Assembly: GCA_973851085.1 (NCBI GenBank)
Contig: OZ316776.1
Location: 6,634,001 to 6,698,000, forward strand
DNA from: Ptychomitrium polyphyllum
Taxonomy: Eukaryota
Length of the DNA stretch: 64,000 bases
Direction of reading: 5' to 3'
Shown: positions 9,302 to 62,595 of the stretch, in pieces
Numbering within the stretch: the stretch's first letter is position 1
How the letters are laid out: each line of letters starts with the position of its first letter
Translations under genes and position numbers: made by a program
The notes under the pieces: model-generated
Told to the model about the DNA's origin: nothing
Database searches by the model: none
The model's input: only the letters and a program-made list of their open reading frames with translations

Positions 9302-9995
9302 TTTATGTTATTAGTGTCTAGTTGAATCCAACCCTTCATTATTGTGGATTGTTACTTAGAATGCAAGTGTATTAGCTTGTGTAAAGTTTTCAACTACCAT
9401 TATTAGGAACATACTTTGGAGAATTGCATTCAAATAGAGTTATTTATAAATTTAGCCCTTTTGTAAACAAGGTGTCGTATAAATAAAGATTGTCAACACA
9501 ACAAATCGAGTATTACAATCATAATCAATTTTGTGGCAAATAAAAACCAAACATAAATGTATAACAAATACACCTTCAAGTGCCCCTTTTAGCTAATCAT
9601 GGAGCCCTGCCTTCAAGTGCCCCCTCTAGTTGATCATGGAGCCCCGCCAAGCAGCTAGAACCACAATTATACATATGTGAAAAATAATGTCACACTAATG
9701 TCTTGGTAGTCCAAACAAGTCAAAAAAATTAGAGAATAAGTGATTAGGAAACTTTTAGGCCAGGGACAATGTAAGCCCCATCTTTAATTGCCTTTAATAA
9801 TTTGAATGTCACATCCCTTACCAATCTTCATGCTTAACTCCAATCTTGAACTTGTAACTAGAAATTATCCAACATAAGGCAAATTCTTATAAATTCCTGA
9901 GCTCTTATTAATAGATAAAATAAGGCCAAAAGATTTTTTACAATGAGGGCAAATCCAATCTCCAAAAGGTAAAGTAAAAAGATGTAGGATCAGAC

Positions 9996-10496
9996 TGTGA
10001 AGGTAAAAAAATATTAAGGTTAATCACTACCAAATGGAAGAGACATGGTAATATTAAGGAGCATACTATGAATTACTGTAGAACTTATTAAAATGGAACA
10101 ACCTGCACATCAACATATACTCAAAAAGAAAATTGATAAATGAGTCAAAAAATGGAGTGTATGATTTGTTTTATAAAAAAAGCCAAATACAACACACCCT
10201 CAACTTTCTTGACTAAGGATTAAAAATACTAAATTCAAATCCTATAAAAGTGGATCTACATTTGTTTGTCTGAAATACGAAGTTCAAATCTTATAAAAGT
10301 GGATCTACATTTGTTTGTTTAAAATACGAAATTCAAATCCTATAAAAGTGGATCTACAATTGTTTGTTTGAACTAACAGTCTCCGATTATCATTCAGTAG
10401 TTACTATTGGTTGGAGGATGTCTGATAGTACCAATAGAAAAGATCGGTAGAGAAAGTCCGGTAGTACCAAATGTAACATCCGGTAGCCCGGTAACA
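9996..10496. mobile_element. Solo LTR (501 bp) inserted in the PHD finger
   Basis: Starts TG (9996), ends CA (10496), flanked by perfect 5-bp TSD CAGAC (9991-9995 and 10497-10501). Confidence 0.85.
10222..10372. repeat. 3 x ~49-bp tandem repeat inside the solo LTR
   Basis: Unit AAATACGAAATTCAAATCCTATAAAAGTGGATCTACATTTGTTTGTTTG, three near-identical copies. Confidence 0.85.
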
Positions 10497-10679
10497 CAGA
10501 CACGTCATGTACCAACCACGTTGGCAATGATATTATAATAGCATGGTAGCCGCCAATTTCTTTTCACCACACACAAAGAAAAGAAGGCAATTAGTACTAC
10601 TACCTATTCAAAATGTATAATATTATTAATAGGAAGGTGGCATGGAGTACAATTCTTAGAATGCTTTTGACACTTCCAT

Positions 10680-11400
10680 CCATCTTTGCCTTTTAATAAT
10701 AAAATACTACTATATAATACATTGTTTTTACATAAAATGGTGCACTTTGCCTTTCATCAAGTGTAGTAGGCGCCTCACACTATAAATGCACATAATCTCC
10801 CTTGGAGAATCTCCGCAACTAAAATCAATAAGTTCCACTATAGATACAAACATAATGCAAAGTATCACAATGCTAAGCAATGGATAGATTTTCCATGGTT
10901 ATAGGCATGGCTTTTTTAAAAACTTCTTCCTAATTATGTAGATATTGAGTTCAAACATCATAATCATCCAAATCCACAACTAAACCTTCTCACATATTGA
11001 GTTAGGCAAAATAGGCTCTCTTCCATACAACAATTGGGAAAGGCTGTAACATACTAAGGATACTTATCTACTAAAACAATAGCCCATAGCAGTGCGTGGT
11101 AGCATTAGGTTCCAACCACAATGATTTCTACAAAGCAATCCATACTTTTGTAAACCACATTTGATTGTCTAAACAACCCTCTCAATTAAGCCATTTACCT
11201 TAGAGTAATCCTTTGAGGTGGTGCAATGATCTATTAGAGCCTTAGTGCACAAATCTTCAAAAGATCCAAAGAACTTCCTCCTTTAATTTGTCAACACCTC
11301 AGCAGATGCTTTAAAAGGTACCAAAATACGATCAAGAAAAGCCATGGCTGCCAACTGTAAAGAGTTTTGTGGTAGAGCAACAAGTTTTGTGGTAGAGCAA
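10680..11400 (-). pseudogene. Gypsy integrase core and C-terminal remnant
   Basis: ALPQNSLQLAAMAFLDRILVPFKASAEVLTN*RRKF...IDHCTTSKDYSKVNGL; AMGY and QLLYGREPILP; LSIA*HCDTLHY and RRFSKGDYV. Confidence 0.8.
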
Positions 11401-12393
11401 AACAATTACAATACAAGCAAATAAAAGCTTATACCCTTTGTGCTTCAACATTGATTAAATATGGTTCTAACTCCAATGGCCAATCATTAAACTTTGTAGT
11501 CTCCTTTCCAACCAATGAAAGGCCACAATGTCTCGCCACGGCCTCTAACTGCTAATTTATGGATGGAGCTACATTTGCATCTCTAACATCCTTACATGCA
11601 GCTAAATGAAGGACTTTGTCACCAAATTCTTACGCCAAAGCAACAAAGATTTGTTAAGCTTGAAGTTTTTTTGCTACATGTTGTTCAAAGTGAAGAAACA
11701 ACTTCAAATTCTCAATCTTTATGAGTGTTGGCTCTAGTATCCCTTGGCCATTTCTCTTTGCCCTTAAAATAAGAAAATTGTTGTTGCAATGTTACTATAT
11801 AGCAAGGCACATGCCAATAATCTACACCATAGTATTGAGGTCTATAGTTTGGCCTAAATAAAAATGCCGCTGGCCTTCTATAAGAATATGAGGAGCTGTG
11901 GTGCTTGTTAAAAAACCTATGGAATGCTCACTTTCATGTGCAAAAGGCTCATCATAGGTTTGAAACTTAGAATCACAAACCATGTAGAGTCCACGTGGTC
12001 AAATTGCAAAAGACCTAGGATAAGTCATAAATGTTGGAAGGCACCCGAAGGTGCCTCCATCTTGTTGATTAAGGTAAGAGAAAACTCATCATCAATGAAA
12101 ACAATTATTGAAACTTGATGATCATCTAAAATATCATCTAGCTTGCGTTGAGATGCTTGTATGACTTTTAAAAGTGTTATTGTAAGCACATGAGATGGAG
12201 CCAAGTTGATTCAAAACCAACAAGCATGATGTACGTAAGATCCCAGTGTCACAGTATCACAACATCTATAAAGGTTGGAGGATCAAGGAGTTGGCAAATA
12301 TAATGCCCATCCTCTACAACCTTTTGTCGTGTATCCTTTAATAGAAGTACATTCTCAAATATGTACCTTAGCGGCTCGGATTGGTGAGCAAAC

Positions 12394-13655
12394 TGTGAGC
12401 TAAAAATCCTCCCTATCTACTTGAAGAAGAAGAATAACTTTACATCAAGTTTAAGAGATAGTAGGAACCAATTGTGAGATTGTTCTAATGGTTGATTAAT
12501 TAATCAAGCGTTTAAAATTCCAAGTTTCTAAATAATTCCTTCCAAGCAATGGTTACCAATTGATTTAGTTAAAACAAGTGATGAAAAATAACACAAGAAA
12601 AAAGAAAAGAATTAGATAGAAATAGAAAGGAAAAAGGAAAGAGTTGGATGAGAAAAATTGGATGGAATAAGTAATTAGATGAAAACAAGGCTACTGGATG
12701 AAAACAACACAGCAGCAATACAGCACAATACAGCAGCAACCGCAGAAGTAGAAAATCTCTCAAATTTCAAACCCTCATAACTTTCTCATTTTAGCTCCAA
12801 ACTTGATGATTCTTGTGCTTAGCCTTATTGATTTTTCTTCCTCTATCCAACAAATATGTCTAATCTGAAAAATAAATCCACTAAAAGTAAGTTCAAAGTA
12901 GTCCAGCAAGGGTGTAAGATAAACAACTTATAACATAAGTATAAAAAAACAAAACAAATATTACTTTTTGGTGCCTCAATGGACTGCCCTTGCCAATGGC
13001 TCAAACCATAGGTGAGAGAGAGAGAGAACAAGGCCTTGAGAGGGCCTTAAATACCCACTTGCTAACAACTTGCGGGGAAGACCAATGGTTGGCATCCATT
13101 TGCCACAAAGTGATGATAAATCACCATGGATACCAATCAATGCACAACTTTTAATCCCTAATAATTTAATTAGCCAAAAATAATGCAAAACAACTTACTA
13201 ACTAATGAAAAATATTAATTTTTGAGAGGATTTCATTAAGAGTCAATTTGATTTGTTGTTGTGGGAATAACGTTTGAAAAGAAGAATAGTTCTTCATTTT
13301 CTTCCTTCACCACTACTTGTGGCTTGAAGAACAAAGGAACTCTTTATCTTCTTCCTTCACCATCTTTTGTGGTTTCAAGAGTAGAGTAATTCTTCATCTT
13401 CTTTCTTCACCATATTCCAACTACCATTAATTCTACCTTTCCTAACAAACTCACCTTAAACAAGATTTAATATTATTTAAAATCTAATCTATATAATTAA
13501 ATTTTGTTAAAACCAACTTAATAATCTAAAGCCTTGGTTCATAATTTAGGCCAATACTTTTATTTTCTCACAATTGATAATTAACTAACACTATTTCTTA
13601 TCAAAATACCAAAAATTAATTAAATAAAGATTTGGTGCATAATCTGGAGTTGACA
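12394..13655. mobile_element. Solo LTR (1262 bp) inserted in the methyltransferase
   Basis: TG at 12394, CA at 13654-13655, perfect 5-bp TSD CAAAC (12389-12393 and 13656-13660). Confidence 0.85.
13281..13413. repeat. ~2.7 x 50-bp degenerate tandem repeat within the solo LTR
   Basis: TCTT(C/T)AT(T/C)TTCTT(C/T)CTTCACCA recurs at 13291, 13341 and 13391. Confidence 0.7.
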
Positions 13656-15092
13656 CAAACCACCACTAAATGAGTTATATCAAGTCTACAAAAAGACTGA
13701 CTAAGAATCATCCAAACCCTAACCTGCTTCAAAATGTGAGTGACCTTGGCAAGATGATTCAACAATGAGAAAGTTAATGTGGTCCAACCTCCTCAAATTT
13801 TCATTACTTATGAAAGTGACATCTTGAGGAAATTGACCAAAACAACTTTGAATGGCAAGAAAGATTAATTGCTCAAGATATTGAGCCAACAACCTTTAGA
13901 GGTAATGTTGAGCAGCTCGCTTGGTTACAAGTCTAGTATCTACATGAATGTATCCTCTAACCTTGATCCCAACTTCCAAAATTGCTGCCAAACTAGTACC
14001 AATGTTGGCAAATAACTCTACAAAGGTAATTTCCTATGCTGGTGGATGCCAATAAATAAGGTGAGCAAAGGCAGATTAGAATGAAATAGTTAGTACTTCC
14101 AAAGATTTCACAGAATCTACTATATCTTAGCATTGCCGAAATAGCTCTGCATGCGTACTTTATAATAGAAATGGATTCTTGCAATGACATGAAAGCACCT
14201 TTGATGGTAGTGGACACCATTGATCTATAAAACTGGCCATAAATGCCAATATTTCCTCCAACAAAATAGATTTTCAAAGAAAAAATATGGTATGAATGCG
14301 CTACATTCATAGAAACTCTTTATTGATATAATTATGGAAGCCGTTGCCAATGCCATAGGAATGAATTTTTTCTTTCCATTTCCTACAACCCAATTTGATT
14401 TAATCCATGCTTCTTTGGTCTAGTTGTTGAGATCAAAATTGAGAGGACAAATTACTTGTTGACCAATTAAAATATCATAGTTGGTAGCACTAGTCACTGC
14501 ACATTGTAGAAGTAAGAGTAAGTAAAGAGATTCAGAACCAATGCAAAAAATCAATTGCAATAATTGCCGTGTATAACCTGCAGCTTGTTGTGTACTTCCA
14601 ACTAATACAAACTGATACAATACAAGTGGCATTGTTATCAGTGTGGCCAACAACAAGTACATTGTTGTCATTAATTAATTTTACCACATTAGGTTGCACA
14701 TTTTGGCGCTTCCAAGTAGACCTTGCGGCAACATCAAATAAATAAGCCACTCCAATTACTAATGACACATCAAGTACAAGACTTAACCTAATTTACTTTG
14801 AAGCACTTTTTTCAAGGACAAAAATGGCTTCAGTTGCAAGCTTAGCTTGTAACTAGTTGAGTCATCATTTGTGGATACCTGACTGACTGTTTGAGCCACA
14901 TCAAAAGATGGCATTGCCATTTTGCCCTCCAAAAGCCTGCTTGCTAGTTGAAAGACGTTGGCCGGCTTAAAATTTGATGTAATTATCTCAACATTGGAGT
15001 GTATAGGAATTTGCAATACTTTGTAAGCCAAAGTATGTGCAAATCTTCCTCCTTGTTCCTCCTTGTTCCTCCTTCATGAGTTGGAGTAAGAA

Positions 15093-16699
15093 TGTGAGGT
15101 CAAGCTACAAATCCAACATCTGCAAGTCCAAATGACAATGGCAGCCAAACTTGGCCTATTTTCTTTAACACACTAATATGGCCAACACACTGTCGTGGTG
15201 AGAGTGGTAGCTATAGGAAATATAAGGTCTTTTTTAGCATCTATTTTATCAAGGTCAAAATGCATGAAGAATTTCTATTTCTAACATCTAATGAAGCAAA
15301 TACCCTACCCCAAATTTTTCCTCTATGCTGCCTTTGAAAATCCTAAATGCTAAATATGTCATAACTTTTAGCAAATTAATCCAAAGCATCTAAAAAGTTA
15401 ACAAAATCTTCTTGAAACATTCAATATGCTATATATAAATTCTGGTTGCTAAATCCTTTAGTACCTTCTAAGATCCATAACTTTAAAGTTTACATTCTTC
15501 ATTGCTACAACTTCTATATCCCTATCACTTTACCACTTCATAATTCTTTTCTTATTGCAAACTCAAACTTCAAACTTTTTGTATATAATGTATGTCTTAT
15601 AATAAACACCTTGTCAAAAGATCAATCTTAGAAATTCCTTCAATCATCTACAATGACCCAAATTGTGCAACTCCAAACTCTACTGTACATTGCCCTCTAA
15701 CTCCAAGTTGCATTTTTCTTTGTATCTTTTGCTCAAGAAGTTCAATGCTCACCAACTTTTGATATAATCTTTTTAAAGTAATTTAAATTTTTCTCTTAAA
15801 ATTTCACTTACAAAAAATGTTTCTACAAGAAGTTATTAACATTCAAATAGTTGCCTTCAGAAACTCAAGGCAGCTAATTTAACTTTACTCAAATTAAAGT
15901 CACGACCACATACTAACTGTAAATGGAGCATGTGATGGCTTTTTGAAAAGCTTACAAAGAAAAAAAAAAATCCAACAAAAATCAACTCAAACTAAGGAGT
16001 ATACTATGATATTTCACCCAAAGAAGGGCTACCTTCTTATTCTAGTGAGAGAAGCCGAGAGAAAATAAGAAGGCGGTGATCAAACCGCCACATCCACCCC
16101 TTATCACTCCACATCAACCTCTAATCTCCTTTATCAAACCCTTATCTAATCATATCTTCAAATAAAAAACAACCTAAATCCTTTTCTTTTGTTTTTCTTT
16201 CTTTTCTTTCTTTTGGTTGAAACTTCTAAATTCCAACTACAAAGAAGATAAAATTAACCCTCATAAATCTAAAATAGAAACTAAAAAAACTAAAATAAAT
16301 GAAAGAAAGTAGGAAAAAGATTAAAATTCAACAATAAACAAGTTAAGAATAAAACCATTGTCAAGATAGGATCAGACACCAAGTCATGAACTTGGTTGAC
16401 TAAATAACTTCTAGCTGCTAAACTGGTCTTAGTTCAATTCTTGTCGGATTCGTTGAATAGAACGGTAGTACTTAACTTGATATTACTAGTAAAAATGGCA
16501 GGCAGGAAAAACTACAGCCAACTGATATAATCATCTTGAGCTAAGCCAAGATACAATTCCACCTTTAAGCCAAATAAAAATTGTGATTTCTCCACAATCT
16601 TTTTTTAATCTAATTATTTTTTTTCCTAATATTCTTTTTCAAATATACCAAATAACAAATACTACTCAAGTTTTAAACTATACAATTAAATACATCACA
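15093..16699. mobile_element. Probable solo LTR (~1.6 kb) inserted between gag and protease; left arm of a long inverted repeat
   Basis: TGTGA...TCACA termini, 4-bp flanking duplication AGAA (15089-15092 and 16700-16703). Homologous in reverse orientation to 18384-~20113. Confidence 0.65.
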
Positions 16700-16739
16700 A
16701 GAATACAACTTCTCTTGTGACTCACATATTGTAGCAACT

Positions 16740-17900
16740 GCTACTATTATCTCCCCTGATGCACCAAACATATAAATATCTGAAGTAGGATTGTTTATTA
16801 CAACACTTGAAATCAAACGAGACACTATAACTTAGCCTAACGTAATTGCAGTCTTGAATTTCTTCTCAAAATCTGCAATCTTGGCTTCTAATGTTTTTTC
16901 TTTCTTTGACGCAAGTGCTTTTTTAGATTTAAAATGAAAAAATAATCTTTATTGTGGTGGAGCCTACCACAATGATTACACTTTGATTGGTCTCATTTTG
17001 TTGTTTCCTTTGTTTAGGCCACCCCTACTTTTTTCTTAAACTTGTCATTTAGTTGACCTTACCTCTTATTAGGACAATTGAGATCATTTTTAATATGGCT
17101 TGCTTCACCACACTTCCTATAATACAAATTTTTCTCAAGCTATATGTCAACCAACCTACTTGTGGTTGTAGAAGCCCTCTTTGACTTAGTAATATTTGTC
17201 ATCCATGAAACCATGTCAACAGCAGCATGTTGGCAGAGAGTTCCATCACACTTTTCAACTTTGGCAAATGCTTAGGCAAGCGTTGCCTTTCCATCATAGT
17301 TGTGAATGATCTTGGCGTAGCTAAATTCAAAAGCCGTTTATTAATCTTGGACAAAAAAATCTTAACAAGTTGGCTCTGAGTAAAAATACCTTCAGATTCC
17401 ATTACAAATTGTATAAAACAAGCATACATGATTTGTGGGATATTTTACTTATCATAACAAAAATCTTAAATGCATTTGTATTTGATTACGCCTCAAACTT
17501 CCATATTCAACTTTAAATGAGCAATGAATAAATGCAATGAATCAAATGCTGGAGGCTCTCTAACAGCAGACAAAGCCACCCATGTAGCTTGCGCCATTTG
17601 TGACAAGGTAAATGGGTCACTGCCTCTAGCAGAAGGTTCCACAACTAAAGCTTTTTTTTTTATATCTTCAACCATTGTAAGAGCCAAACTGGTTATAGCA
17701 TCTTCCTTAAGAGCAGAGATGAGTTCTACACAAAATGAAATGACTTCCAATAGCATTTTATCTTGCGCAACTTAGATACGTACTCCTCATTTCATCTTTC
17801 ATAAGCCTGGGGCACTTTGTACTCTAAAAACTTGTAGTAACAACTCATATGCATACCAATTATTGAAATTGGAAGGCCGTTGGTGTTTTTCTTTCATCCA
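16740..17900 (-). pseudogene. Degenerate retrotransposon gag with two Zn-knuckle-like motifs
   Basis: ORF pieces 17493-17756 and 17199-17429; YRKCGEASHIKNDLNCP (~17072-17125) and KCNHCGRLHHNKDY (~16942-16985). Confidence 0.65.
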
Positions 17901-18383
17901 CATCCAAAATCTCAATTTCCAATCTGCTAATGAAATGCCCTTAGTCTGCCCAAAAACCGATCTACCACCATATTATGAGGATTGTCTTCCATCTCATTAA
18001 ACATGCCTACACCCAAGATCTAAAGCCTTTTTGTAGTATCTAACGCCAAAAGACACTAAAAAGCCTTATTGGTATCGACCTTTGGCTCAAAATCTTCAAT
18101 GTAGTTACCTTCCAAGTTGTTTAGTGAGGGAGATCAATAATATCAACTTCTTGTTTGCACCATAAAAGACACTACTTGGATACCTGCAATTATTAAAAGG
18201 CTTAAGGGCAACTTGAACCTACACCTATAATCACTACCAAACTTGCAATTCACAGATCATCACCACCTTTCAGTTACCACAATTCAAACAAGCACAGCTC
18301 ATTTGGTGCAAACAAAAAGATTTCACCAACCATCAGCCTAACCTCATCTTTACAGTACGTTTATAAGCACAAACTACATTGTC

Positions 18384-20113
18384 GTAATGTAATTAGCTAT
18401 ATGTTAAAACTTCACTAGTATTTGTTATTTTGTGGAATTTAAATTATTATGTTTGGAAGAAAGTATTAAGAAAAAAAAAAAAATTAGTTAAAAAAAGGTT
18501 GTGATGAAACCACAATTTTATTTATTTTAGACGTGGAACCGCATTTTGTCTTAGCTTAGGATGAATAAGCCGGTTGACTATAGTTTTTCCTGCCTGCCAT
18601 TCTTGCTAGCAGTACTAAGTTAAGTGCTACCGTTCTACTCAACAAATCTGACAAATAATCGAACTTAGACTAGTTTAGCAGCTGGAACTTATCCAATCAA
18701 CCAAATTCATGACTTAGTGTCTGATCCTACCTTGATGATGATATTATTCTTAATTTATTTCTTGTTGAATTTCAATATTTTTCCTACTTTCTTTCATTTA
18801 TTTTAGTTTTTAGTTCCTGTTTTAAATTTGTAAAGGTTGATTTAATTTTCTTTTGTGGTTGGAACCTAGAAGTTTCAATCAAAGGAAAGAAAAGAAAGAA
18901 AGCAAAAGTAAAGGATTTAGTTTGTTTTTTATTTGAAGATATGGTTAGATAAGGGTTTGATAAAGGAGATTAGAAGCTGATGTGGAGTGATAAGAGGTGG
19001 ATGTGCCAATTTGACCACCGCCCTCTTCTTCTCCCTCGGCTTCTCCCACTAAAATAAAAAGGCAGCTTTTCTTTAGATGATGAGATATATCATACTTCTT
19101 ATTTTGAATTGATTTTTATAAGATTTTCTTTCTTTGTTTGTACGCTTTTCAGAATGCCGTTACATGCTCCATTTGGAGTTGTTATGTGATTGTGGCACTA
19201 ATTTGAATAAAGTTGGTCCAATTGCCTTGAGTTTTGAGAGCAGCTGCTTTGAGTGCTTATAACCTCTTGTAGAAACAATTTTTGAAGATAAAATTTGAAA
19301 GGTAGTATTTTGACTACTTCAAAATGATGGTGAAAAACTTTGAGGGAAAAGGGCTTTTGTAGTAGGAGTTGTAAGAAAATATGTAACCAGATTTTAAAAG
19401 GCAGTATACAGTAGAGTTGGAGTTATATATTTTGGCTATAAAAGAAGATTGGAGTGGTTTTTAATGTTGATATTTTAACAGAATATTTATTGTAAGATAA
19501 GTTATATATGTACAAATTTTGGAATTTAAATTCATAGTAGAAAAGAAATTATAAGGTGGTAAAGTAAGGGAGGTGTGGTGAGAAGGATGAGAGCTTTGAT
19601 TTCATGGTTCTCAATGAATATAGCAATCATAATCATAAAACTTTTAGTGTAGTTTTCTAAATGCTTTTAAAACATAGTGCCAAAATATCAGGATCATTGG
19701 ACTTTGTAATTAGGAAATATGGACAAATTTGTAAATAGGATTTTGAAGGGAGTACATAGTTACAGTTTGGATTTGGATTGTGAACTTTACAAAGTATGTA
19801 AATTATAATAACAAGCTTCTGCACATAACTAACTTGAATTTAAATAATATCTTATCAAATTATTGAGGAATTAATAGCAACTAGAGGCTTGGTGTTTTTT
19901 CAAAGCAAGGCTCCTTCTCTACGACAACGTACAACACAAAATTAGGCAACACCAAAAACCTCTAACAACAATGCCCGCAATGAATGAAGGTATAAAGTAC
20001 AAAATCCAAAAATCCAAAATCCAAAATTTGGATCCTCTTCTTTAAATAACAAATTGCAAAATTCAAAAATAGGCCAAAGCTGCCGGCACTTGACTGTGGT
20101 AGATAGCCACACA
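18384..20113. mobile_element. Second copy of the same LTR-like family, inverted relative to 15093-16699
   Basis: 16088-16170 is the reverse complement of 18924-19005; 16498-16524 matches 18571-18597; 15668-15700 matches 19392-19427. Outer end tentative (possible TGTC duplication). Confidence 0.65.
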
Positions 20114-20543: not shown

Positions 20544-20932
20544 TGTTATAAACAAAGTAACTACTAAACAAGGCTTCAGGATTCCAAGATGTGGAACAAG
20601 ATATGTCCAAGGTAAATTTTAGATAAAGAGCTATAACAAGGTACAAAGACAAGGCCAAAAGGCTTGAGTTAGACCATAAGAGATATATTGTTGAGATAGA
20701 AGATTCCTTCAACTTCGATTCCTATATATATTAGATTTACAAGCCTTGGAAGCTTCTTAGAAAGCTTCTACTACATTGTGTTGTACTCAAACAACCTTGA
20801 ATTGCTTTGTTGGAAGCTTGCTAAGTCAAGGTAACTTCTTTGGAAGCTTCCTAAGTTGAAATAACTTCCTTAGAAGCTTTCAAAACCTTCTAAAAACCTT
20901 TTTAAATGCTTCTAATATGTATATCCATGTCA
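20544..20932 (-). mobile_element. 3' LTR of a minus-strand Gypsy element, preceded by a polypurine tract
   Basis: TG...CA termini. Minus-strand AGAAGGAGAGGTGG abuts the LTR start at 20932. Homologous to solo LTR 35453-35942. Confidence 0.75.
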
Positions 20933-21499
20933 CCACCTCTCCTTCTAGCTTTACGGTCTCCAAAGAACATGTTGCAAGATGTGCCGGAGTCGGAAGAAGT
21001 CAGAAATTTGTTTCATAGTGTTTGCAACATATTCCAATTGCCTTTCATAATTCAAATGGTTCATGGGTCCTTATAACCATCAATAGTGTCCAACACCTTC
21101 TACTTGGAACCAAGCATGAACTTCCGTATCTTTGTTGTGAAAATGTCCTTCAAACACTACTTTCTAATATCCTTTGTAAGCTGGTTCCACTTTAAAGACA
21201 ATCACCAACAATCTGTTGCTAGGTATCTTTTAACGTCTCCTTCATCCAATCTGTTTTTCATCACAAGATTGTTGACAAGATCCATTTGATTGGAGTAATA
21301 CCACTGGCATGGTTTTTGCATCTTGATTGTCCATATCTAATATATCAAGCTATTTTCAAGGAATTATAATAAACTTTAAAATAAAAACGACTAATTTCTA
21401 AATCATGTTTGGAGCTTAAGAAACTTATAATTTAGGAGTTTCTTTTTATCCTAATTAAAAGCCAAAGCATTAAGAGCATTCAAAGTTACACAACCTTAC

Positions 21500-23107
21500 C
21501 GAGCCACTATTCCTTGTGCTGCTATTTTTGATTTGGATGGATGTTGTCAATGGAACTCACAAATTTTTAATGATGAATTGGCATGATTATTAGTTGGCTC
21601 CTTTGTATGTTTACTGATGTCATTTCCGCACTAATGAACCAAATATTCCATCTTTCTACATCTTATTTGTTTGTTAAGCACTTTTCCCACTTGAAATTCA
21701 TGATGATTGTCAATTTTGACTACAAGTGGTGGCAGCTATTTTTGTCCAAGGATACTTGATTCCTTATAAATTTCTAAAGGTGAAACGTGGAAGACGGGAT
21801 ATACCTTCATTGATGTTGATAGTTCCAAATAATATGCCATGTAATTGATTTGTTTTTTTATTACAAATAGTTCCAATCTGCAATAGTCCAACTTGTCATA
21901 TGGCCTATTTGTCCTTATTTTGCGTCAAAGGAACCACACCTTTTCACCAATTAAAGATGGCGATTATTCCTTCCTTATTGCATCTCTTGGCGTTTTGTAT
22001 TATTCTTGAATTTCTTCTAGTTGAGTCTTCATGGTTGTTTGAAGCTGTGACATCCTTGTCGCAAATTCCTTTGCTACTGGATTCTCAGATTGTGGAGGTT
22101 GTAACATATCCATCTTTGGATGATGTCCATAATTGGAGCAGAATGACGTTTGTTAGATGGAAGCGTGAGCGGTGTTGTTGTAGGCAAATTCAACCAATGG
22201 CAAGCAGGAAGTCCAATCATCTTATTGATAGTTGATAGTATCTTCAAGTATTGCTCCAAAATTTGGTTGATTTGCTCTGTTTGGCCATTGGTTTGACAAT
22301 GGAAGGCAGAAGAAAGTTTGATGTCCACCTTAAGGATTTCAAAGAGCAATTTCCAAAATCTTAATACAAACTGTGGTTCATGATCCAATATAATATTGTT
22401 AGGTAATCCATGGTAGCGGTAGACATTATCCATAGAAAGTTGCAATCTCTTCACTTGTAATTCTCTTCTTGTAAGGTACAAAATAAACCATCTTGATCAA
22501 CATGTCTACCACAACGAAGATGGTGTCAAAAAAATTTGACGATGGAAGATCTGTAATGAAATCCATTGAAACAAACAACTACAGTTGCCTTGGAATAGAT
22601 AGTGGTTGGAGAAGTTCGTATGGACGGTGTCGAGGGTTCTTCAACCGACAGTAAGTATCACACAATAATACAAACTCCTTAACGGCCTTCTATATTTGAG
22701 GCTACCAAAAGTCTTACAAGAAGAGTTCCAAGGTTTTGTTGAATTCAAAATGTCTAGCCACAAAAAAGTCATGATGTGTTTGAAGTACACAAAGGCAAAT
22801 TGGTTCTTCAAGAATATATAAACGTTCTTTAAAGTAGAGAAGGTTGTCTTTTAATTTGAACTTAGACACATCTTCAAGGAGATTGTTGGAACAACATTTA
22901 ATATCAAGAATAAGAGGTTCCTTGGTAGATGCCATATGAACTTGGTTAAAAAACAATGAATCCACCGGAGTTGAAATGGTGGTGATGCGTACACAAAATC
23001 ATTTGAGTTTCAACAAAGTTGTTTGTTGTTGATCGTATACTATCTCTTCTTCCTTTGGTCTAAGGTATGATCACTTTAATAAAGCATTTGATAACCCTTG
23101 TTGTTTT
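21500..23107 (-). mobile_element. Decayed chromovirus-type Gypsy pol fragment (RNase H end, integrase, GPY/F, chromodomain)
   Basis: HHDFFVARHFEFNKTLEL; SMDFITDLP...IFVVVD; YHGLPNNIILDHEPQF...SSAFHCQTNGQTEQINQILEQYL; MKVYPVFHVS; EYLVH*CGNDISKHTKEP. Confidence 0.8.
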
Positions 23108-35260: not shown

Positions 35261-35452
35261 GTGGGTCAGATTAGATTGAAATAAAGATAGAGTTTGTTGG
35301 CCATGAAATCAAAAGGATGAAGATGTGAAGGAAATGAAGATGAAAATAATAGAAGAATTTTTTATATATTGAACAATGGTGTTGTATAGCAAGTGGTAGC
35401 AGAAAGAGTTTTGTTTTGCAGCTAATTATGATGTAGAGTAGAAGCAGCACTA

Positions 35453-35942
35453 TGTTACGGACAAAGTAACCACAAGACAAGGTTCCAGGATTCTAGAATG
35501 TGGAATAAGATAAGTTCAAGTATATTAGAGGTAAAGAGCTACAACAAGGCACAAAAGACAAGGCCAGAAGGTTTGAAGTAGACCACAAGAAATGCGTTGT
35601 TGATACTGAAGAGTTCTTCAGCCTTGACTTCTATGTATACTAGAACTACAAGCCTTAGAAGCCTTAGAAGTTTCTTGAGAAGCTTCACTTATATTACTTT
35701 GTACTCAAGCAACCTTGAGTTACTTCCACGGAAGTTTCCTAGGTCGAGGTAATTTCCTTGGAAGCTTCCTAAACCAAGGCAACTTCCTTGGAAGCTTTCT
35801 CAGCCAAAGCAACTTCTTTGGAAGCTTCCTAACTCAAAGGTAACTTCCTTGGAAGCTTCCTAAATCCAAGGTAATTTCTTTAAAAGCTTCCTAAATCTTC
35901 TAAGAACCTTTCTAGATGCTTCTAATATGGATGTCCATCACA
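35453..35942. mobile_element. Solo LTR (490 bp)
   Basis: TGTTACGGACA...TGTCCATCACA imperfect inverted termini, perfect 5-bp TSD CACTA (35448-35452 and 35943-35947), internal ~30-bp tandem array. Confidence 0.9.
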
Positions 35943-38900
35943 CACTATGTAGTTAAGTCTTCATCTGTGTTAGGCCTTCTTTGTTTTTAGGATGCATCTT
36001 ACTTTGGATTTGGTTTTAGGAAATTTTTATAACTTGTCATTTTACAAAATACACACAATACATCATTGTTTTCTTATAATCCACTCTCCAATAATTATTC
36101 ACAAAGTAGATGAATTTTTAAACAATTATTTTTATTGACAATAATTATTCTTCAAAAAGGTAGTACTTAAAAGGTAAACTCATAGTTCATGTTGTAATCC
36201 AAGAATGAGGTCTACATTTTTATGTAGGAATGAGAATTACAATATGGAAGAACTGAGGATGAGGAATGGGGATTAAAAGAGTTGATATCAACAATGGCAA
36301 AAGGACAAGAAAGTCAATAAGCATTAAAGATGCAAATTGAACCATAAAATATTTTTACATGACTATTTTACATATTGAATGGGAATAATACCCACAAGGT
36401 GTGGTGTTCTTAAATTGAAAAAAACAACCTTTCAAATCTATACCTTTTAAATGTTTTATTTAAACAAAATAACTAATTTTATTATTTTTTGAAATCTAAA
36501 TTTAAATCATCATTCTTTAGTATCATTGACTGATTCCCGTTTGGTATGTAGGGAAAGAATGAATTTAATTATGTTATATAATATTGGATTAATATGCTTT
36601 GGCATATCTAATAATTTAGAACAATGTGGTTTGAGAAATTTAAGTCTTTTTTAAGAAATAAGGGTTTTATAAACATTGTTGCAAAGTGAATAAGCTTAGT
36701 AAAAAAAAATAGTGGTATTCCAAGAAATAGATGAAAGTTTGTGTTTTTGGTATAAAACACATTATTTGTTGTTGATTTGAGTGCATGTTTATTAGACTCT
36801 TTGAAAGATTCTTAAATTCAAATGTTTGTTAAAAAGACAAAAAATTTAATAAAGATCAATAAAAGATTAATCTACAATAATAGATTGAATGCTAGTGAAT
36901 ACCAATCTCAAAAATGGACATGGTTCTATTGCTGACATATAATAATACTTCAAATTTACATAATTTTGTACAAAATTGAAATAAACTTTGGAATCCAAGA
37001 GATTTTCATAACCAAGTGGATAGTATTGAATTCTATTTTGTATTTGTAAGTAGCTCATTTACAAATACAAATCTTGTAATAATGGGTGATAATTTAAGAA
37101 ATGCCCATAGAAATAATCTAGCCATATTTGTAGTGAAGATGTGTATTAATAATGCACATTATGTATAAAACATATTCCTTATACTAAACAATGAAAAGAA
37201 GGTGCACAAAAATGAATAACATGAGAATTTTTTTAATAATTATTTAATTAGTCATTTGTAACTTTATTTTAGGCATCTAATTATCAATTGATTTTCAAAA
37301 AATCAGAATTTCATGTGACCTTTTTCAATGCTAGAAGTACCAATATTATTTTGTAAATTTATTGCAAATAAACAATGTTGCTATCCAATATCACTTGCAT
37401 CCAAAGATGGTAACTCAATTTTATTTTTTTTCTATAAAAAAAATTACCTTCGTAGTTACCCAATTCATAAAATTTTGTAATTTTTATATGTATTGGTACT
37501 ATGTGACATGTGCACCTTGTCAACAATGGTATTAAATATATATGGACCATTGAATATTTTAATTTATTTTATAATGCACAAAGGATCTTTAAATATTTAT
37601 ATAACATAAGAATAATATTAAAATGGTAAAAGTGGCTTCTAAAATCAAATTTATTAATGAACCAATCCACGCTTTTTCAAAATAATGCTCAAAAACTCAA
37701 CTAGTTTAAGCAGCCATTACATCTTGAAGTGATAGCATTTAACATAAGTTTCTATATTATTATAAAAGTGAAACAATAAAATTTAAAAAATAATAATAAT
37801 AAAACCAAAACCCTTAAAAATCAGTAAATATTAAATAATAAATATTTAAAATATAAAATTTAAAGAACTAATAATAAAAATTAATAATAGTTGATATAAA
37901 TAAGAATAAAAACAATAATAAATATTATATAATAAATAATAAACTATAAAAAATAATTTATAAATGCTAGTGAATGGATGGATGGATGGACAAACAAAGA
38001 TTTCAAATAAGATTAGAGTATAAGGTTCTTTTGGTACTTTGTACAAAATCTTTAATAGTACATGGGTATAATTTACACACTTTGGAAATAATACACCTTT
38101 AAGAGGCATATGTAAATGACTTATTGTGCTATCAAATAAAATTATATTAATATAAATACAAACAAATAAAATAGATAATTTTTGTAAATGGAATAGAATA
38201 AACATAAATGTTCATAAATGGGCTTTCATTGATTTTCCAAATAAATCCAAAATAAACATTCAAGCCTTCAAAATTCAATTGAAGCTAATAATATCAACCA
38301 TAGAAATACACCTCGTTATTATTATTACATCAAATTAGATCTTATATAAACCTTAGCATACATCTAGTTTCATCATTCAAATTTATGTGTATTCAAATTA
38401 TTGCAAAAATTATTAAATAATATTAATGATTTATTGTCTATTTGTTTGCAATAAAAAAGAATAAAGATGAAAAATATAGTTATTTTTCCTACAATTGCAT
38501 ATAGCTTCTTTGTAATTCTTTATTTGTAAGCAGTTATAAAAAAACTTAATAAAAAGGTATTAATCTTAAAAAAAGAAATATATGAATTCATACTAGGAAT
38601 ACTAAATGTTGATACACTATTGCCACATGTTTGGAATGAAATTTTTAATACTAAAAAATGATTATTTCACATGAATTGAGAAATAATTTAACAAAGTCTC
38701 TATCCATACAAAAATACTAGGAAATTTTATATTTGCTTATTACATTACAATTTGCAAAATAGAAAGACATGTTACACATCACAGACATAATTCATCATGA
38801 ATTTTGTTAATCACCCATCACTTGTATTATTTTCATTAAAAAAATTCAAGGTATCCATCTTCAAAGTGAAATAGCCATTTTTTTTCTTACATCTACTATT

Positions 38901-41900: not shown

Positions 41901-43660
41901 TCAGTCACTTAGATCTGGAACTGTGTCGAACAAAGATTTTAATGAACTTGAGTCAGTGCTAGTTATGGAATGAAGTGTTTAACAATGGTGGTTCCTCCGT
42001 GGACGATGTGCGTAATCTAAATGTAAATGTAGAGGTGTATAAAAATTATAGGATTCTATGTATGTTTTTCTAAAAACTTATAGGAAAATGAAGCAAGTCT
42101 TTTTCTTAAATTAAAATATTAATTAGGTTTCTTATTCTAAACTCAATAAATTTATATTATTATGGTATAAAATTACACTTTTAAATATTTTAGATTTTTA
42201 TGTTCTTGGAAAGCGTGTCTAATGTCTTATATACACCAAACTTCTGTAAAGTTTATCTTCAAATGGGCATTTTTAGAAGGCAATAAGATAAAAGCATGTT
42301 AAAGTCTAATTATATAGAAGAATCCATCAATCACTTATTATGCCAATGTATCTAATTCTTGTAACTATGGCAAGATGCAATTATTTCAAGGTAATCATAG
42401 CAATCAAAATTGTTACTACTATCTTTAGAGATTTTTTAATGATATAATATACAAGCAAGTTAGGCAATTTTCTCCTAAATACTAATAAAACTATGATAAA
42501 AGTAGGCACTTTATGGAATATTGTTTTATAGTTAGATATCTTTATATATATTTTCAAAAACTTGAGATTTAGCTAGTGCTAAAGCTTTAAGAACTTTGTA
42601 AATTTGTACATTGAAAATAAAAATTCACTATACTTAAAAGGCATCATGAAAGAATATGAAGATTTGTGAATTTAAAGCATAATTTTAAGAATGCATAGTT
42701 TATCACAAGTGATATGGCATGATTTATTTTATTTGACACTTTAGGTGTGGACTTTACCATGCAATCATTTAACAAATTATTTTATGCCTAACCTGCCCAT
42801 CAACTACAGTATTTTAGTGTGCAAAGACCCAACAGTATGATAACAGTTTTCACATTGTCTTGAAGCTCTGAAGAACTCACAAGTAGTACTAAGGTTACCG
42901 TAATCCTAATGCAAAGGTCCAGTCTGCGGCGCCCAGAGAGGCTAATTCCAAGGGAACCATGGTCCTCAAATCATTCCCAAAGATGCCGCGTGATGATGCA
43001 TTTGTGCAGAAACACCTCTAAACTTGTTTTGTAACGACTGCCCGCCGATTTCTCAAAGCCCACCGTGAGTTCACAGCCTAGTCGTCGTGTGCATCCACGG
43101 ATACGCGAGTGTCGCTCTATGTGCACTTCGGACAGGCTCAGGCCTGGCTCCACTTAGTTCGGGAAGTTTGGAAGTTTTTAATTTTAAAGAATGGAAAGAA
43201 GAACAATGTTCCAGAACAGACGGATGCATCGTCTCGGACGACGGATGGCCTATCGTTGAGTGAACGGCTGTGAATGCCACTGCTGATTGGACCAACGGGA
43301 TGCTCCGGCCTTCCAGCTTGGCATACACACGCTCACTGATTCATCAACTGCTTACCAGTGATCGACATTGCTGAGAGCAGTCACCACCTCTGCTTCGCTT
43401 GTAGCTTCGCACTCTTACCTGCGCTATCTTTCCTTTTTCACAACCAGCATCCAATCCACCTTCCTCTGGCTGACTTGCATGCTCCCCTATCTGCTTCCCT
43501 TTACCATTTCAATCAGTAACTTGGAGCATCATCTCTATCTGCTTACATTTCTCTACTTACAAGTTACAGTTTCCGTTGCAAAGGTGGGATATTTCAGAGG
43601 AAGGCTTGAATTTGGAGCCAAGGTTTGGGTTTTCTGAGTTTGGAGAGAGTGTTGTGTGCT

Positions 43661-45428
43661 ATGGCGACTGCAGCGTCCTCAGTGTTGGGGCTAGGGAGTG
43701 CAGGGGTTGTTGGGGTGCAGAGAGCGTCGTCGACGTCCTCGTGCTGTGTGTCGTCTGAGGCGGCTCCTTCAGGGTTCGTTTCTAGGAGGAGAGCTGCAGG
43801 TGGGTCTCAGCTGAGGTCGGAGTTTTTGCCTAGTTTGGCGCCAGTGAAGGGGAGGTTCAGGGTTGCAGCGAGGCGAGTGAGAGTGGAAGGGTTGCGGACT
43901 GTGGAGGCGATAGCGTCGGACCCGGCGCAGTTGAGGGCTGCGCGTGAGGATATCAAGAAGCTTCTCAAGGAGAAGCACTGCCACCCGATTCTGATCCGTC
44001 TGGGGTGGCACGACGCAGGGACGTATGACAAGGATGTGAAGGAGTGGCCGGCTCGCGGCGGCGCCAATGGCAGCCTGAAGTACAGTATGGTGCAGAATCA
44101 CAAGGCCAACGCTGGTCTGTTCAATGCCGTCGCGCTCTTGGACCCTGTAATGGAGAAGTACCCTGACATCACGAACGCTGACCTCTTCCAGCTCGCGAGC
44201 GCCACTGCCATCGAGGACGCGGGGGGTCCCAAGATCCCGTTGCGCTATGGCCGGAGAGACATTGAAGGGGAGCACCAATGTGTCAAGGAGGGCAAGCTTC
44301 CCGATGCCGCTCCGCCATCTCCCGCTGACCATCTTCGCAATGTGTTCTATAGGATGGGTTTGAACGATCAAGACATTGTCGCTCTCTCAGGTAATCTACA
44401 TATTCCATAAATTTTCTCATACTTCGTCTCTGATTCAGGATATTTCCTCGCGGTAGAAACAGGGGTGTTTTCGGCTTGTTTAGGTTTCAAACAGTCTTTT
44501 GCATGCTCAGTCACCATCGCTCCTTTCGCAGGTGTCTGGATTGTGGCATTTCTTGTGAGAGGGCCGTTTGTTATGTAGGATTTATGTTACAAGTTTGCAG
44601 TTGGTAAATTGTGGCATAATTGTGTTTAGGCCATTATCGATTTCGCTTTAGGACGTCTTATCGAGAACGAGGTTCTTATCTGCGATGAAGGGTTGCGGTT
44701 GTTGTGGCTAATTAGGTCTCTCGTGGTAGAGTTTGACTACGAAACTAAATATCACTTTGATCACCCTGCAAATTGTGTAAGGTAGGTATTCGATGTCTGC
44801 TGGTATGGTCTTTGGACACTGTTAAGTACTGATGATTTCTCCCTGCAATTTGTTTTCAGGAGCACATACCCTAGGCAGAGTTCGGCCGGAGCGGAGTGGA
44901 TTTGGAGAGAAGGAGACGAAATATACTAAGAACGGCCCGGGCGCACCTGGAGGCAGCTCATGGACGCCGGAGTGGTTGAAGTTCGACAACTCCTACTTCA
45001 AGGAGATTAAGGAGAAGAGAGATGCCGAACTCGTGGTCCTACCCACAGACGCAGTGTTGTTCGAAGATCCATCATTTAAGAAGTACGCTGAGAAGTATGC
45101 TGCAGACGAGAAGGCATTCTTCAACGACTACGCCATCTCACATGCGAAGCTCAGTGAGCTTGGCTCGGAATTTGATCCCCCTGAAGGCTTTTTCCTTGAC
45201 AAGCCTGAGAAGAAAGTCGAGCCTGAGATTTTCGTAGCTGCCAGGTACTCCTCTCAACCGGAAGACAAGCAAGATCTCTCTGATAACATGAAGGACAAAA
45301 TCCGTGCCGAGTATCTGGCTCTTGGCGGTGCTCCTAACAAGGCTATGGGCTCTAACTACTTCCTCAATATCATTATTGGAATCTCTGTTCTTGTAATCCT
45401 GTCTTACTACCTGGGCTATCTTGGCTAG
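43661..45428 (+). CDS. tAPX: Chloroplast thylakoid-bound ascorbate peroxidase, ~432 aa; exons 43661-44390 and 44860-45428
   Basis: Ser/Arg/Ala-rich transit peptide, distal [13 protein letters not shown], proximal SG|AHTLGR rebuilt across a phase-1 GT-AG intron, [10 protein letters not shown]-terminal hydrophobic anchor. Confidence 0.95.
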
Positions 45429-60027: not shown

Positions 60028-62514
60028 TCACCAGTAATCACCACATGAACACAAGCCATCTTTAAAATGGTGAAAACGACTGGCATCCCGTGCGATTATC
60101 TCCCTTCCAGCGAGCTTGGATATAAATTTGGAAGCAGAGTGGCAATCAGCACACACACGCAAATTCTTGTAAATACGAATCGGTGTGGAAGGGGGTGTAC
60201 TGATAATTCCATAAACAATAGCCAATTTCTCACTATGATAGTTGATGGCTTCTTCCTTCTGCTGTTCTCCAACGTCATGCAACACATTTTGAGTAAGAGG
60301 AACATATCCTTCTCTCTTAATTTCTTTCATTAACCTGGCCAGCTCAATGTATATCTCTCTCACTTGAGGGTGGGATCTATCTTCTGTAACAAAAGTATGT
60401 ACCTTCCCGTCAATTTGAACCCAAGTGCAACCCTGCTCTTTCTTAACACCTCTGCCCTCCATTACTTTCCTCACTTTCGCAACATTGTCCCACATACCAG
60501 CTGCAGCATATATGTGTGAAAGTTGTACATACACTGCGCCATTATGTGGATCAATTATTAGACTTCTCTCAGCCGCACGTTCTGCTACTTCTAAATTCCC
60601 GTAGATTCTACAAGCACCTAACAAAGAACTCCAGATTGAAGCGGTTGCCTTCAGTGACATATTATTGATAAACTGTTCTGCTTCATTTAAATGCCCTGCA
60701 CGCCCAAGGAGGTCCACCATGCAACCATAGAGTTCCATTGTTGGGACTATCCCATAATCTTGAAGCAGAGAAGTGAAGAAATGACGGCCCTCTGTCACAA
60801 AACCTGCACGGCTGCAGGCAGATAGCACACCAACGAACGTGACTGAACTTGGCCTGACCCCTTCCTCCAACATCCGCTCAAAGAGATCCAGAGCTTCTCG
60901 AGCGTATCCATGCAGCGCATACCCTCCGACCATTGCATTCCACGTGATAACGTCTCGTTTAACCATATTGTCAAAAACTCGACAACCACCCTCAATGCTT
61001 CCGCACTTTGAATACATATTGATCAAGGCATTCCCTACAGGAATATGAGACACCAGACCTGCTTTTATCACTTGAGAGTGGACCTCCTTACCCAATTCCA
61101 ACATTCCCGGATTCACACATACATTCAGGATGTTGATGTATGTGACCCTATCTGGCTCCACACCCTCGCGTTTCATGTGATGGAAAATCTCAAAGGCTTC
61201 TTTACCGCAACCATTCTCAGCATAACCCCCAATCATCACACTCCATGACACAACGTCTCGTCTCGACATGCTATCGAAGACTTGACGTGCGTGCTTGACA
61301 GCACCGCACTTGGCATACATATGAACGAGAGCTGTGCTCACAAGAAGATCAGTTCCAAATCCAGTTCGCTCTACTTGCAAATGAATTCTTTTCCCATACT
61401 TCAAATTTCCGAAGCTTGCACATGCATTCAGGATGTGCATGTACGTGACTTTGTCTGGCTGAATACCTTCTTCTTGCATCAAGGCAAAAACACAAAAAGC
61501 ATCCTCGATGTGGCCACTCTCAGCATATCCTTCAATCATGGCTGTCCACGAGACAACATCTCGTACTACCATTTTATCAAAAACGTTGCGGGCATCCTCG
61601 ATGCTCCCACAATTTGTATACATGCGGATGAGAGCGGTCGCTACGCATATATCATGAACGAATCCATCTTTGATACATTGAGCATGAACTGCTTTGCTCC
61701 GTGCTAAACCTTCTAGCCCCAAACAAGCATCTAAGATGTTCAAGTAAGAAATTCTGTTCGGCTTCGTACCTTCTTGTTGCATAACATGAAATACTTGAAA
61801 AGCCTTCTCACCATCACCACTCTTGGCGTATCCCCCAATCATCACATTGAATGTACTCACGTCTCGTTTCACCAATCCGTCAAATATTCGACGAGCTTCA
61901 TCCATACTTCCACCCTTCACATACATGTTCACAAGGGCAGTTCCAACACGAAAATCGGACACAAACCCCGCGTTTACAGCTTGGGCATGAACCTCTCTAC
62001 CCCATTTCAAAGCTGCAGGGCTGGAACAAGCATCCAGAACAGTCAAATACGTAATTGTATTGGGTTCCAGACCTTCGTCAAGCATTTGGCGAAACAGAGT
62101 AAAGGCTTCCTTGACATAGCCAAGCTGAGCATATCCTGCGATTATCGCATTCCAGGAAACAACAGTTTTATCCACAACGCTGTCAAACACCTCCCTCGCG
62201 TCTTCCACGTTCCCACAAAGCGCATACAACTTGATCAAGGTGTTGAGCTCGTAAACGTTCAACTGACGGCCACTTTGAACGATATGATCACGAACCTGCT
62301 TGCCCAAAGCCACATTCCGAAGCTCCATACACCGCTGCAAAAGCTTCACGTAAGCCCGCGAATCCACATGGTTCCCATGCTCGCGCAATCTGTGCAACAC
62401 ATCGTCTGCTCCACCCCCTCGAGCAAGGTTACTCCACCACCTTCCATTTGGGGTGGCCAGTTTGATACTCCTAGCCACTCTCTTCACTACAATATTCGCA
62501 GCAAACACCCGCAT
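60028..62514 (-). CDS. PLS-class PPR-DYW RNA-editing factor, 828 aa, intronless, probably organelle-targeted
   Basis: 17 regular P/L/S repeats, E1, E2 and a DYW deaminase with HSEKLA, KNLRVCADCH and terminal DYW. Basic N-terminal extension. Confidence 0.97.
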   Translation of the reverse strand: MRVFAANIVVKRVARSIKLATPNGRWWSNLARGGGADDVLHRLREHGNHVDSRAYVKLLQRCMELRNVALGKQVRDHIVQSGRQLNVYELNTLIKLYALCGNVEDAREVFDSVVDKTVVSWNAIIAGYAQLGYVKEAFTLFRQMLDEGLEPNTITYLTVLDACSSPAALKWGREVHAQAVNAGFVSDFRVGTALVNMYVKGGSMDEARRIFDGLVKRDVSTFNVMIGGYAKSGDGEKAFQVFHVMQQEGTKPNRISYLNILDACLGLEGLARSKAVHAQCIKDGFVHDICVATALIRMYTNCGSIEDARNVFDKMVVRDVVSWTAMIEGYAESGHIEDAFCVFALMQEEGIQPDKVTYMHILNACASFGNLKYGKRIHLQVERTGFGTDLLVSTALVHMYAKCGAVKHARQVFDSMSRRDVVSWSVMIGGYAENGCGKEAFEIFHHMKREGVEPDRVTYINILNVCVNPGMLELGKEVHSQVIKAGLVSHIPVGNALINMYSKCGSIEGGCRVFDNMVKRDVITWNAMVGGYALHGYAREALDLFERMLEEGVRPSSVTFVGVLSACSRAGFVTEGRHFFTSLLQDYGIVPTMELYGCMVDLLGRAGHLNEAEQFINNMSLKATASIWSSLLGACRIYGNLEVAERAAERSLIIDPHNGAVYVQLSHIYAAAGMWDNVAKVRKVMEGRGVKKEQGCTWVQIDGKVHTFVTEDRSHPQVREIYIELARLMKEIKREGYVPLTQNVLHDVGEQQKEEAINYHSEKLAIVYGIISTPPSTPIRIYKNLRVCADCHSASKFISKLAGREIIARDASRFHHFKDGLCSCGDYW

Positions 62515-62595
62515 CGTAGTTTGGAAAACATCTAACCCACCAAAAGACGATTTCCATCAGACTCAACTCACATCGTTACAAATTGCTGTAGTTGC

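Follow-up and report, generated by a model that had tools for sequence, protein, structure and literature searches.

Can a retrotransposon of a land plant carry its own cytosine DNA methyltransferase, and what would the element gain from it? This question is raised by a stretch of 64,000 nt from the moss Ptychomitrium polyphyllum (contig OZ316776.1, positions 6,634,001-6,698,000 of the forward strand), referred to here as the window and numbered from its first nucleotide, in which an earlier note had recognized a DNA methyltransferase (DNMT) inside a Gypsy polyprotein. The region is almost certainly the broken DNMT3-like methyltransferase of a dead moss Ty3/Gypsy-type retrotransposon. The complete account proposed here, which combines this anatomy with readthrough of a stop codon behind the DNMT and with an enzyme made at the level of Gag, packed in the particle and methylating the complementary DNA (cDNA) of the element, is given a probability of a little under 0.6.

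The methyltransferase and its retrotransposon family

All six C5-methyltransferase peptides quoted in the earlier note were located on the minus strand, in canonical order, between 14012 and 11834: FANIGTS (motif I, 14012-13992), SSCQGHS (motif IV, 13757-13737), YIFENV (motif VI, 12365-12348), GSYVHHACWF (motif VIII, 12243-12214), EPFAHESEHSIGF (11950-11912) and LGQTIDLN (11857-11834). They fall in two halves of a DNMT3-like domain, both on the minus strand. The N-half (13656..14051) runs from motif I to motif IV and the next helix, keeping the catalytic Cys and lacking the Pro before it, while the C-half (11798..12393) holds motifs VI (ENV) and VIII, the target-recognition region, motifs IX and X, and two frameshifts. 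Between them lies a nested solo long terminal repeat (LTR) of 1262 bp (12394..13655), bounded by TG...CA and by the 5-bp duplication GTTTG on both sides. Other copies in the host were examined through the contigs of runs X1 and X2, both from one sample; nine contigs of X1 and eight of X2 exit the window at 12393 and enter the upstream half (judged by eye), so that other copies exist without this insert.

Assembled from five pieces with an X at each break, the window DNMT scored 242 bits over positions 2-314 of a hidden Markov model (HMM) profile of 46 other proteins, the best of 200 shuffled controls reaching 0.3 bits. Identity between the decayed domain and the 46 in the profile lies at 22-42%. 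The N-half alone matched 178 proteins at E<=0.001 in a HMMER scan of 1.84 billion proteins (best 2.5e-26), and together these two results exclude a chance likeness. PF00145 was found in most of the 41 proteins scanned with Pfam among 150 listed N-half matches (picked by length or rank), many of which also hold a zinc knuckle, protease, reverse transcriptase (RT), RNase H, integrase or PHD domain. Pfam returned no PF00145 for the two halves submitted singly and no significant family for any of six window fragments, nor for five more (2 of all 11 probably being in a poor frame). The N-half alone had no match in the PDB, and a word-index search with it gave 84 candidates, none of them significant. 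With nine stops, three frameshifts and the 1.26-kb solo LTR as its one insertion, and with alterations in the glycines of motif I, the Pro preceding the catalytic Cys and the arginines of motif VIII, the window copy is a pseudogene, as dead as the earlier note had stated.

The intact form of the element is known from a metagenome scan, in which 125 candidates yielded 65 loci (L001 onward); a viral collection added one weak locus from 36 candidates (L066, 34%), which makes 66 and sits on a long branch of the DNMT tree. Between 20110 and 9473 of the window, L001 runs colinear with it, at a DNA identity of 71-75% in leader and coding sequence and 64% at the 3' end. Its two open reading frames (ORFs) are both open: ORF1 encodes gag-protease-DNMT (1369 aa) and ORF2 encodes RT-RNase H-integrase-PHD (1047 aa). 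Pfam identifies PF00145, RVT_1, RT_RNaseH, rve and PHD in L001. The comparison with PF00145 that the earlier note had proposed is thus negative for window fragments read singly and positive for the family (51 bits in L001 and 46 in L003, cut-off 22). Both L001 and L003 have the hallmarks of Gypsy elements, namely the order protease-RT-RNase H-integrase, an integrase of the DDE type and the absence of a tyrosine recombinase. Of the 40 sequences that extend for 1.5 kb or more beyond the DNMT, a set that includes the window and one viral locus, 28 have RT within 1.5 kb behind it and four more about 2.4 kb away.

That a host DNMT3 gene was captured just once, or that unrelated fragments lie side by side by chance, might be suggested by the broken state of the window copy, by its fragments without a Pfam match and, as a point against the proposed account as well, by one contig in each run (X1 and X2) that bypasses the whole DNMT (11862-14221). 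L001 aligns across all parts of the element, and no introns and no DUF3444 match are present in the element DNMT (Pfam, ORF1 of L001). The DNMT-Gypsy fusion is common to the 65 loci and dozens of polyproteins, and the summed contig depth over the DNMT in the host (at 80% likeness), a measure that should not be taken as a copy number, amounts to about 7-20 times the depth of single-copy contigs and shows a dispersed, diverged family. The colinear, uninterrupted L001 rules this explanation out, leaving it a negligible probability; it also means that the situation in which the earlier note would have given up its claim, other copies lacking the DNMT between protease and RT, does not hold for the family.

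The enzyme is assigned to the DNMT3-like, non-permuted class, since DNMT3A/B/C are the best matches by profile, sequence and predicted fold. A profile of 24 close sequences ranked DNMT3A/B first in the PDB (3e-11), ahead of a DRM-type entry (1.5e-6) and M.HhaI (2.8e-6); the L001 domain alone again gave DNMT3A/B as best (6e-8); and its predicted structure (pLDDT 95.5) was matched by Foldseek to DNMT3A-DNA with an E of 4e-21 and TM scores of 0.71/0.83. Uninterrupted relatives retain motif I, PCQ, ENV, HRxR and motifs IX-X, and in an alignment of 45 proteins G-W-x-C-Q hardly varies. Their DNMT is under purifying selection: the ratio of nonsynonymous to synonymous substitution (dN/dS) is 0.095-0.126 among the stop-free L001, L002 and L003 (one pair with a dS of 0.26, two near saturation), against 0.105-0.127 for the protease, 0.02-0.03 for RT plus integrase, and 0.35-0.42 for the DNMT of decayed copies. 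The earlier note's central claim, that a land plant harbors a Gypsy family which encodes a C5 methyltransferase of its own, is borne out by the colinear L001, the position of RT, the moss host and this selection.

The DNMT tree comprises 40 domains, all element-borne except for one viral row, with near-identical proteins omitted. In it, the window nests with L001-L003 (98/90 support) and then with the proteins P0165 and P0166, and the sequences of the Closterium and Chromochloris types form separate clades. These main groups reappear in a quick RT tree, with one exception concerning the L006/L008 group (below).

The stop behind the methyltransferase and the possible role of the enzyme

In L001, L003 and the window, ORF1 and ORF2 share a reading frame, and only a single TAG comes between them. 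The window TAG (11554-11552, minus strand), which ends ORF1 and with the two codons after it spans 11546..11554, is likely a readthrough site into ORF2, of which the first 53 codons (11386..11551, minus strand) are left up to a deletion junction at 11397/11386. The context is TAG CAG TTA in the window, L001 and L002, TAG CAA TCA in L003 and L055, TAG CAA CCA in L006 and TAG CAA TTA in L054. UAG CAR YYA is the readthrough signal of tobacco mosaic virus (TMV), with an efficiency of about 10% in vivo (PMC2754532; this paper, PMC5890265 and PMC6453930 are cited here from excerpts of their text). Of 47 sequences scored (two further ones being too short), 42 have a stop followed by CAR-YYN in the 400 nt behind the DNMT, or 39 without three likely chance matches, as compared with 7 of 159 downstream control windows. 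The three dropped matches are those of L061, L063 and L064, of which L061 was checked. Five lineages, with DNMTs 34-76% identical and with differing residues around the stop, retain the motif, four of them as exact CARYYA, and four proteins of the same clade end 127-181 residues past the DNMT, as expected of a stop. From this pattern, the stop very probably works by readthrough. A TMV-like signal in this position implies that the DNMT is likely made at the level of Gag and not at that of Pol; the earlier note had placed the domain inside the Gypsy polyprotein, and it lies more exactly in the Gag ORF, ahead of the in-frame stop, not in Pol proper.

It is proposed that most ribosomes would stop after the DNMT and a minority (about 5-10% in TMV) would read on, yielding abundant Gag, protease and DNMT and scarce RT and integrase. 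Made together with Gag, the DNMT would be loaded into the particle, freed there by the protease, and would methylate the new cDNA. Because this cDNA is presumably the only DNA in the particle, the copy would enter the genome already methylated. The PHD finger at the end of ORF2 may bind unmodified histone H3 tails and direct integration to chromatin unmethylated at H3K4, surroundings that a methylated insert would suit. Its best solved relatives are the fingers of CHD4, PHF12, PHF21A, ATXR5, KDM5A/B, UHRF1, BAZ2 and AIRE, which share a preference for unmodified H3. Later, the window copy would have undergone silencing, C-to-T decay, the loss of 2 kb and four nested insertions. In a related case, the DNMT3 of a Symbiodinium retrotransposon methylates CG de novo in yeast (PMC5890265), and self-methylation of the cDNA is the best guess for the element DNMT.

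A number of observations weigh against this account. As regards the stop, the largest locus group has CAACCC and not CARYYA, one third of its members with TAA; the proteins P0155, P0164, P0185, P0186 and P0059 (from Closterium) contain DNMT and RT in one open frame, so that the stop is confined to some branches; and the 47 sequences are not independent, because most are copies of one family. The CAACCC group would suit a stop that is the true end of ORF1, with ORF2 translated by re-initiation or from an RNA of its own, spliced or separately transcribed. Such an arrangement is clearly unlikely in view of L001, where ORF2 is in frame right after the stop and has no Met within its first 100 codons, and of the CAR-YY retained in five lineages in spite of the differing residues around it. 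As regards the family, L001 is a metagenome locus, and the L006/L008 group joins the L001 group in the RT tree (support 90) and not in the DNMT tree. As regards methylation, the window copy has lost 40% of its cytosines to T in CG, 42% in CHG and 27% in CHH (the reverse change being 7%), and a loss in three contexts fits what host silencing alone would produce. CpG depletion was rejected as a sign of self-methylation, since nested elements without a DNMT are equally CpG-poor. Finally, the Gypsy DNMT of Klebsormidium produced no methylation in yeast, a result that its authors regard as inconclusive (PMC5890265).

This last result would be expected if the DNMT were retained for something other than catalysis, for instance to bind nucleic acid in the particle or to serve as a decoy against host DNMT3, and a dN/dS of about 0.1, above that of RT and integrase, points the same way. 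The retention of every catalytic motif listed above and the nearly invariant G-W-x-C-Q make this explanation quite improbable.

The same anatomy would also serve an abundant DNMT that acts outside the particle, on host chromatin, on insertion flanks or on competing elements in the nucleus. Expression at the level of ORF1 would supply much more enzyme than one cDNA requires, and moss DNMT3b acts de novo on CG and CHH sites in heterochromatin (PMC6453930). Yet Pfam detected no DUF3444 or other targeting domain linked to DNMTs in ORF1 of L001, fusion to Gag is the usual route for loading a protein into the particle, and the methylome of K. nitens is not unusual (PMC5890265), all of which renders action outside the particle rather unlikely.

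The dead copy and its surroundings

The window copy extends over 9473..20110 on the minus strand, aligning with positions 637-8659 of L001. Its 3' match stops at ACGACA, like related termini, and its 5' terminus was not located. The 5' leader is interrupted by a nested solo LTR of 1549 bp (18380..19928, TG...CA) with the 4-bp duplication ACGT/ATGT, a site that is empty in L001. The gag region (16703..18163, minus strand) begins with an ATG at 18163 and shows two decayed zinc knuckles, stops and frameshifts. It is followed by another nested solo LTR of about 1.5 kb (15191..16702), with the 4-bp duplication GTAT/GTGT where L001 has GCGT. These two LTRs belong to one family, are 74-82% alike and lie in opposite orientations. 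Next come the Gag-protease linker and the aspartic protease itself (14294..15190, minus strand, the protease at about 14350-14690), both decayed; among relatives, the Pfam protease families score below cut-off in L001 and above it in P0166. The DNMT lies on the same strand as gag and has no introns, as the earlier note had observed.

At 11397/11386, about 2.0 kb present in L001 is gone, corresponding to RT, RNase H and the integrase zinc finger; in other host copies the sequence continues past the two sides of this junction (11-12 and 7 contigs). Beyond it are the decayed integrase core and C-terminal part (10595..11386, minus strand) and the PHD finger (9901..10577, minus strand; PF00628 on L001), interrupted by the fourth nested insert (9996-10496, 501 bp, TG...CA, 5-bp duplication GTCTG). 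The order given in the earlier note, with the DNMT between protease and the pre-RT/integrase region, is thus correct, with the qualification that this copy has lost RT, RNase H and the integrase zinc finger. RT is absent from L013, L051, L052 and L053 too, which keep the DNMT and integrase or PHD, indicating that RT-less deletion derivatives are common in the family.

Neither an LTR pair nor split repeats were found in the window element, and no LTR pair was found in L001 or L003. Inverted repeats at 15.8-16.6 and 18.4-19.3 kb were considered as element ends and rejected, as they are the two nested solo LTRs. L029 and L047, members of a sister subfamily, have split repeats in the order A(340)-coding-B(115)-A-B, TG...CA termini and the 4-bp duplications AAGG and AATC. 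The split repeats are partial in L014 and L019, and L001 shows the junction ACGACA-GT-TGTCA only, the window only the 3' end ACGACA (9473). The internal B-A junction ACGACA-NN-TGTCA (L029 10337-10366, L047 11887-11916, L014 5172-5201, L001 8646-8680) looks like that of a circle, the two element ends meeting across a spacer of two bases, and the element that shows it has a DDE integrase and duplicates 4 bp of its target.

Three of the four nested LTRs were tested against the 66 loci, without any match. The family of the LTRs at 15191-16702 and 18380-19928 is very abundant, its depth being some 250-450 times that of single-copy contigs. Its ends are TGTCGT/ACGACA, and it shares the ACGACA end and the length of its duplication, 4 bp, with the DNMT-bearing family. 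L001 has GCGT and ACGT at the empty sites, and ACGT mostly stands beside the LTR ends in the loose ends of 26-46 contigs, so a CpG-centred target preference is likely for these LTRs.

Elsewhere in the window, two repeats (20645-20933 and 35446-35943) that are 74-82% similar and about 15 kb apart, with integrase-like remnants between them (22074-22998), are probably the LTRs of another decayed Gypsy element. The host genes include an intact PPR-DYW gene (60028..62556, minus strand), whose best named relative among 120 matches listed is a Ceratodon purpureus protein with 81% identity over the whole length. This places the host among the mosses, and as none of the 120 listed matches bears a Sphagnum name, a peat moss is an unlikely host. 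Three further host genes (43610-45428, 51911-52648 and 54173-54922) were judged on visual inspection to be a plastid ascorbate peroxidase, a laccase-like exon and an EndoU-like exon.

Related elements and significance

The closest known system is KnitGypsy-Dnmt3 of Klebsormidium nitens (de Mendoza et al. 2018, PMC5890265). Like the moss family, it has an intronless, non-permuted DNMT3-like domain in a Gypsy-type polyprotein and is under purifying selection (dN/dS below 0.2). Its DIRS-like split repeats have a counterpart in the A-coding-B-A-B arrangement of L029 and L047, in the sister subfamily. The two differ in that the DNMT of KnitGypsy-Dnmt3 is placed in the Pol ORF, whereas that of the moss family ends ORF1 before stop-CARYYA; a PHD finger ends ORF2 of the moss family, and neither readthrough nor PHD is described for KnitGypsy-Dnmt3 in the excerpted text of that paper. 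The comparison is based on its description, as no Klebsormidium-named protein is among the matches to the element DNMT.

The same DNMT family is joined to Gypsy RT, RNase H or integrase in Closterium (Zygnematophyceae) and Chromochloris zofingiensis (Cz02g39130). Unlike the moss family, Closterium P0059 has DNMT and RT in one frame, and the Chromochloris type has the DNMT between RNase H and integrase. The latter position, not before RT, is found in P0057, P0093, P0100 (Chromochloris) and P0200, which implies that the domain has moved or has been gained twice within the Gypsy elements of the green lineage. In P0073 and P0077, a Dam domain stands beside the same DNMT family, with a weak RT match in P0077 as well, and the family is also present in P0160; these three are possibly DIRS-like dual-methyltransferase elements. 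The Closterium proteins P0071, P0101 and P0131, in which the DNMT is apparently fused to a Copia-type gag or RVT_2, may be nested insertions or gene-model chimeras.

Other systems resemble single parts of the element. The host enzymes PpDNMT3a/b (Yaari et al. 2019, PMC6453930), from the same kind of host, share the DNMT3-type catalytic domain and the canonical motif order, but they are encoded by stand-alone genes and have a C-terminal DUF3444, while the element DNMT has no DUF3444 match, no introns and a place in a retroelement ORF. TMV type I readthrough (PMC2754532) likewise uses a stop-CAR YYA between an abundant product and a rarer, polymerase-bearing extension, and the same source cites candidate readthrough in rice gypsy elements. 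The candidate site described here differs in following protease and DNMT and not gag directly. EpiLTRs/Dam-LTRs of Cymbomonas and Euglena (Fernandez-Moreno et al., bioRxiv 10.64898/2026.05.21.726589, cited from part of its text) are also LTR elements that combine a DNA methyltransferase with a chromatin-reading domain; they possess Dam, a DNMT4-sister DNMT and a chromodomain, in place of which the moss family has a DNMT3-like domain and PHD, with no Dam.

An opinion paper of 2019 considered transposon-encoded DNA methylases to be absent from land plants such as tracheophytes (PMC6338049), and papers of 2025 and 2026, in the passages available, still name only charophytes/streptophytes and dinoflagellates, citing the 2018 work. 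No report of a DNMT-bearing retrotransposon in a moss, liverwort or hornwort was found in the literature searched, the coverage of which excluded most subscription journals, figures and bioRxiv supplements, and the available portions of PMC10508981, PMC11982613 and PMC10952607 contain nothing on such elements in bryophytes. The kind of element is thus already known from Klebsormidium, and what is new is the moss host and the probable readthrough stop behind the DNMT. A broader history can be offered tentatively, with clearly less than even confidence: an ancient green-lineage clade may have carried DNMT3 from algae into land plants by descent, the bryophyte branch moving a readthrough stop behind the DNMT, which would give a Gag-level enzyme, pre-methylated cDNA and a PHD finger that aims at H3K4-unmethylated chromatin. 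On this view, the element would set its epigenetic state ahead of integration.

A moss family with uninterrupted relatives shifts the known boundary of DNMT-bearing retrotransposons into the land plants, and uninterrupted domains such as that of L001 reopen the question, posed in 2018, of the activity and sequence context of Gypsy-borne DNMT3. The position of the stop provides a first hint on dosage: the enzyme is seemingly needed in Gag-like amounts, which favors work inside the particle.

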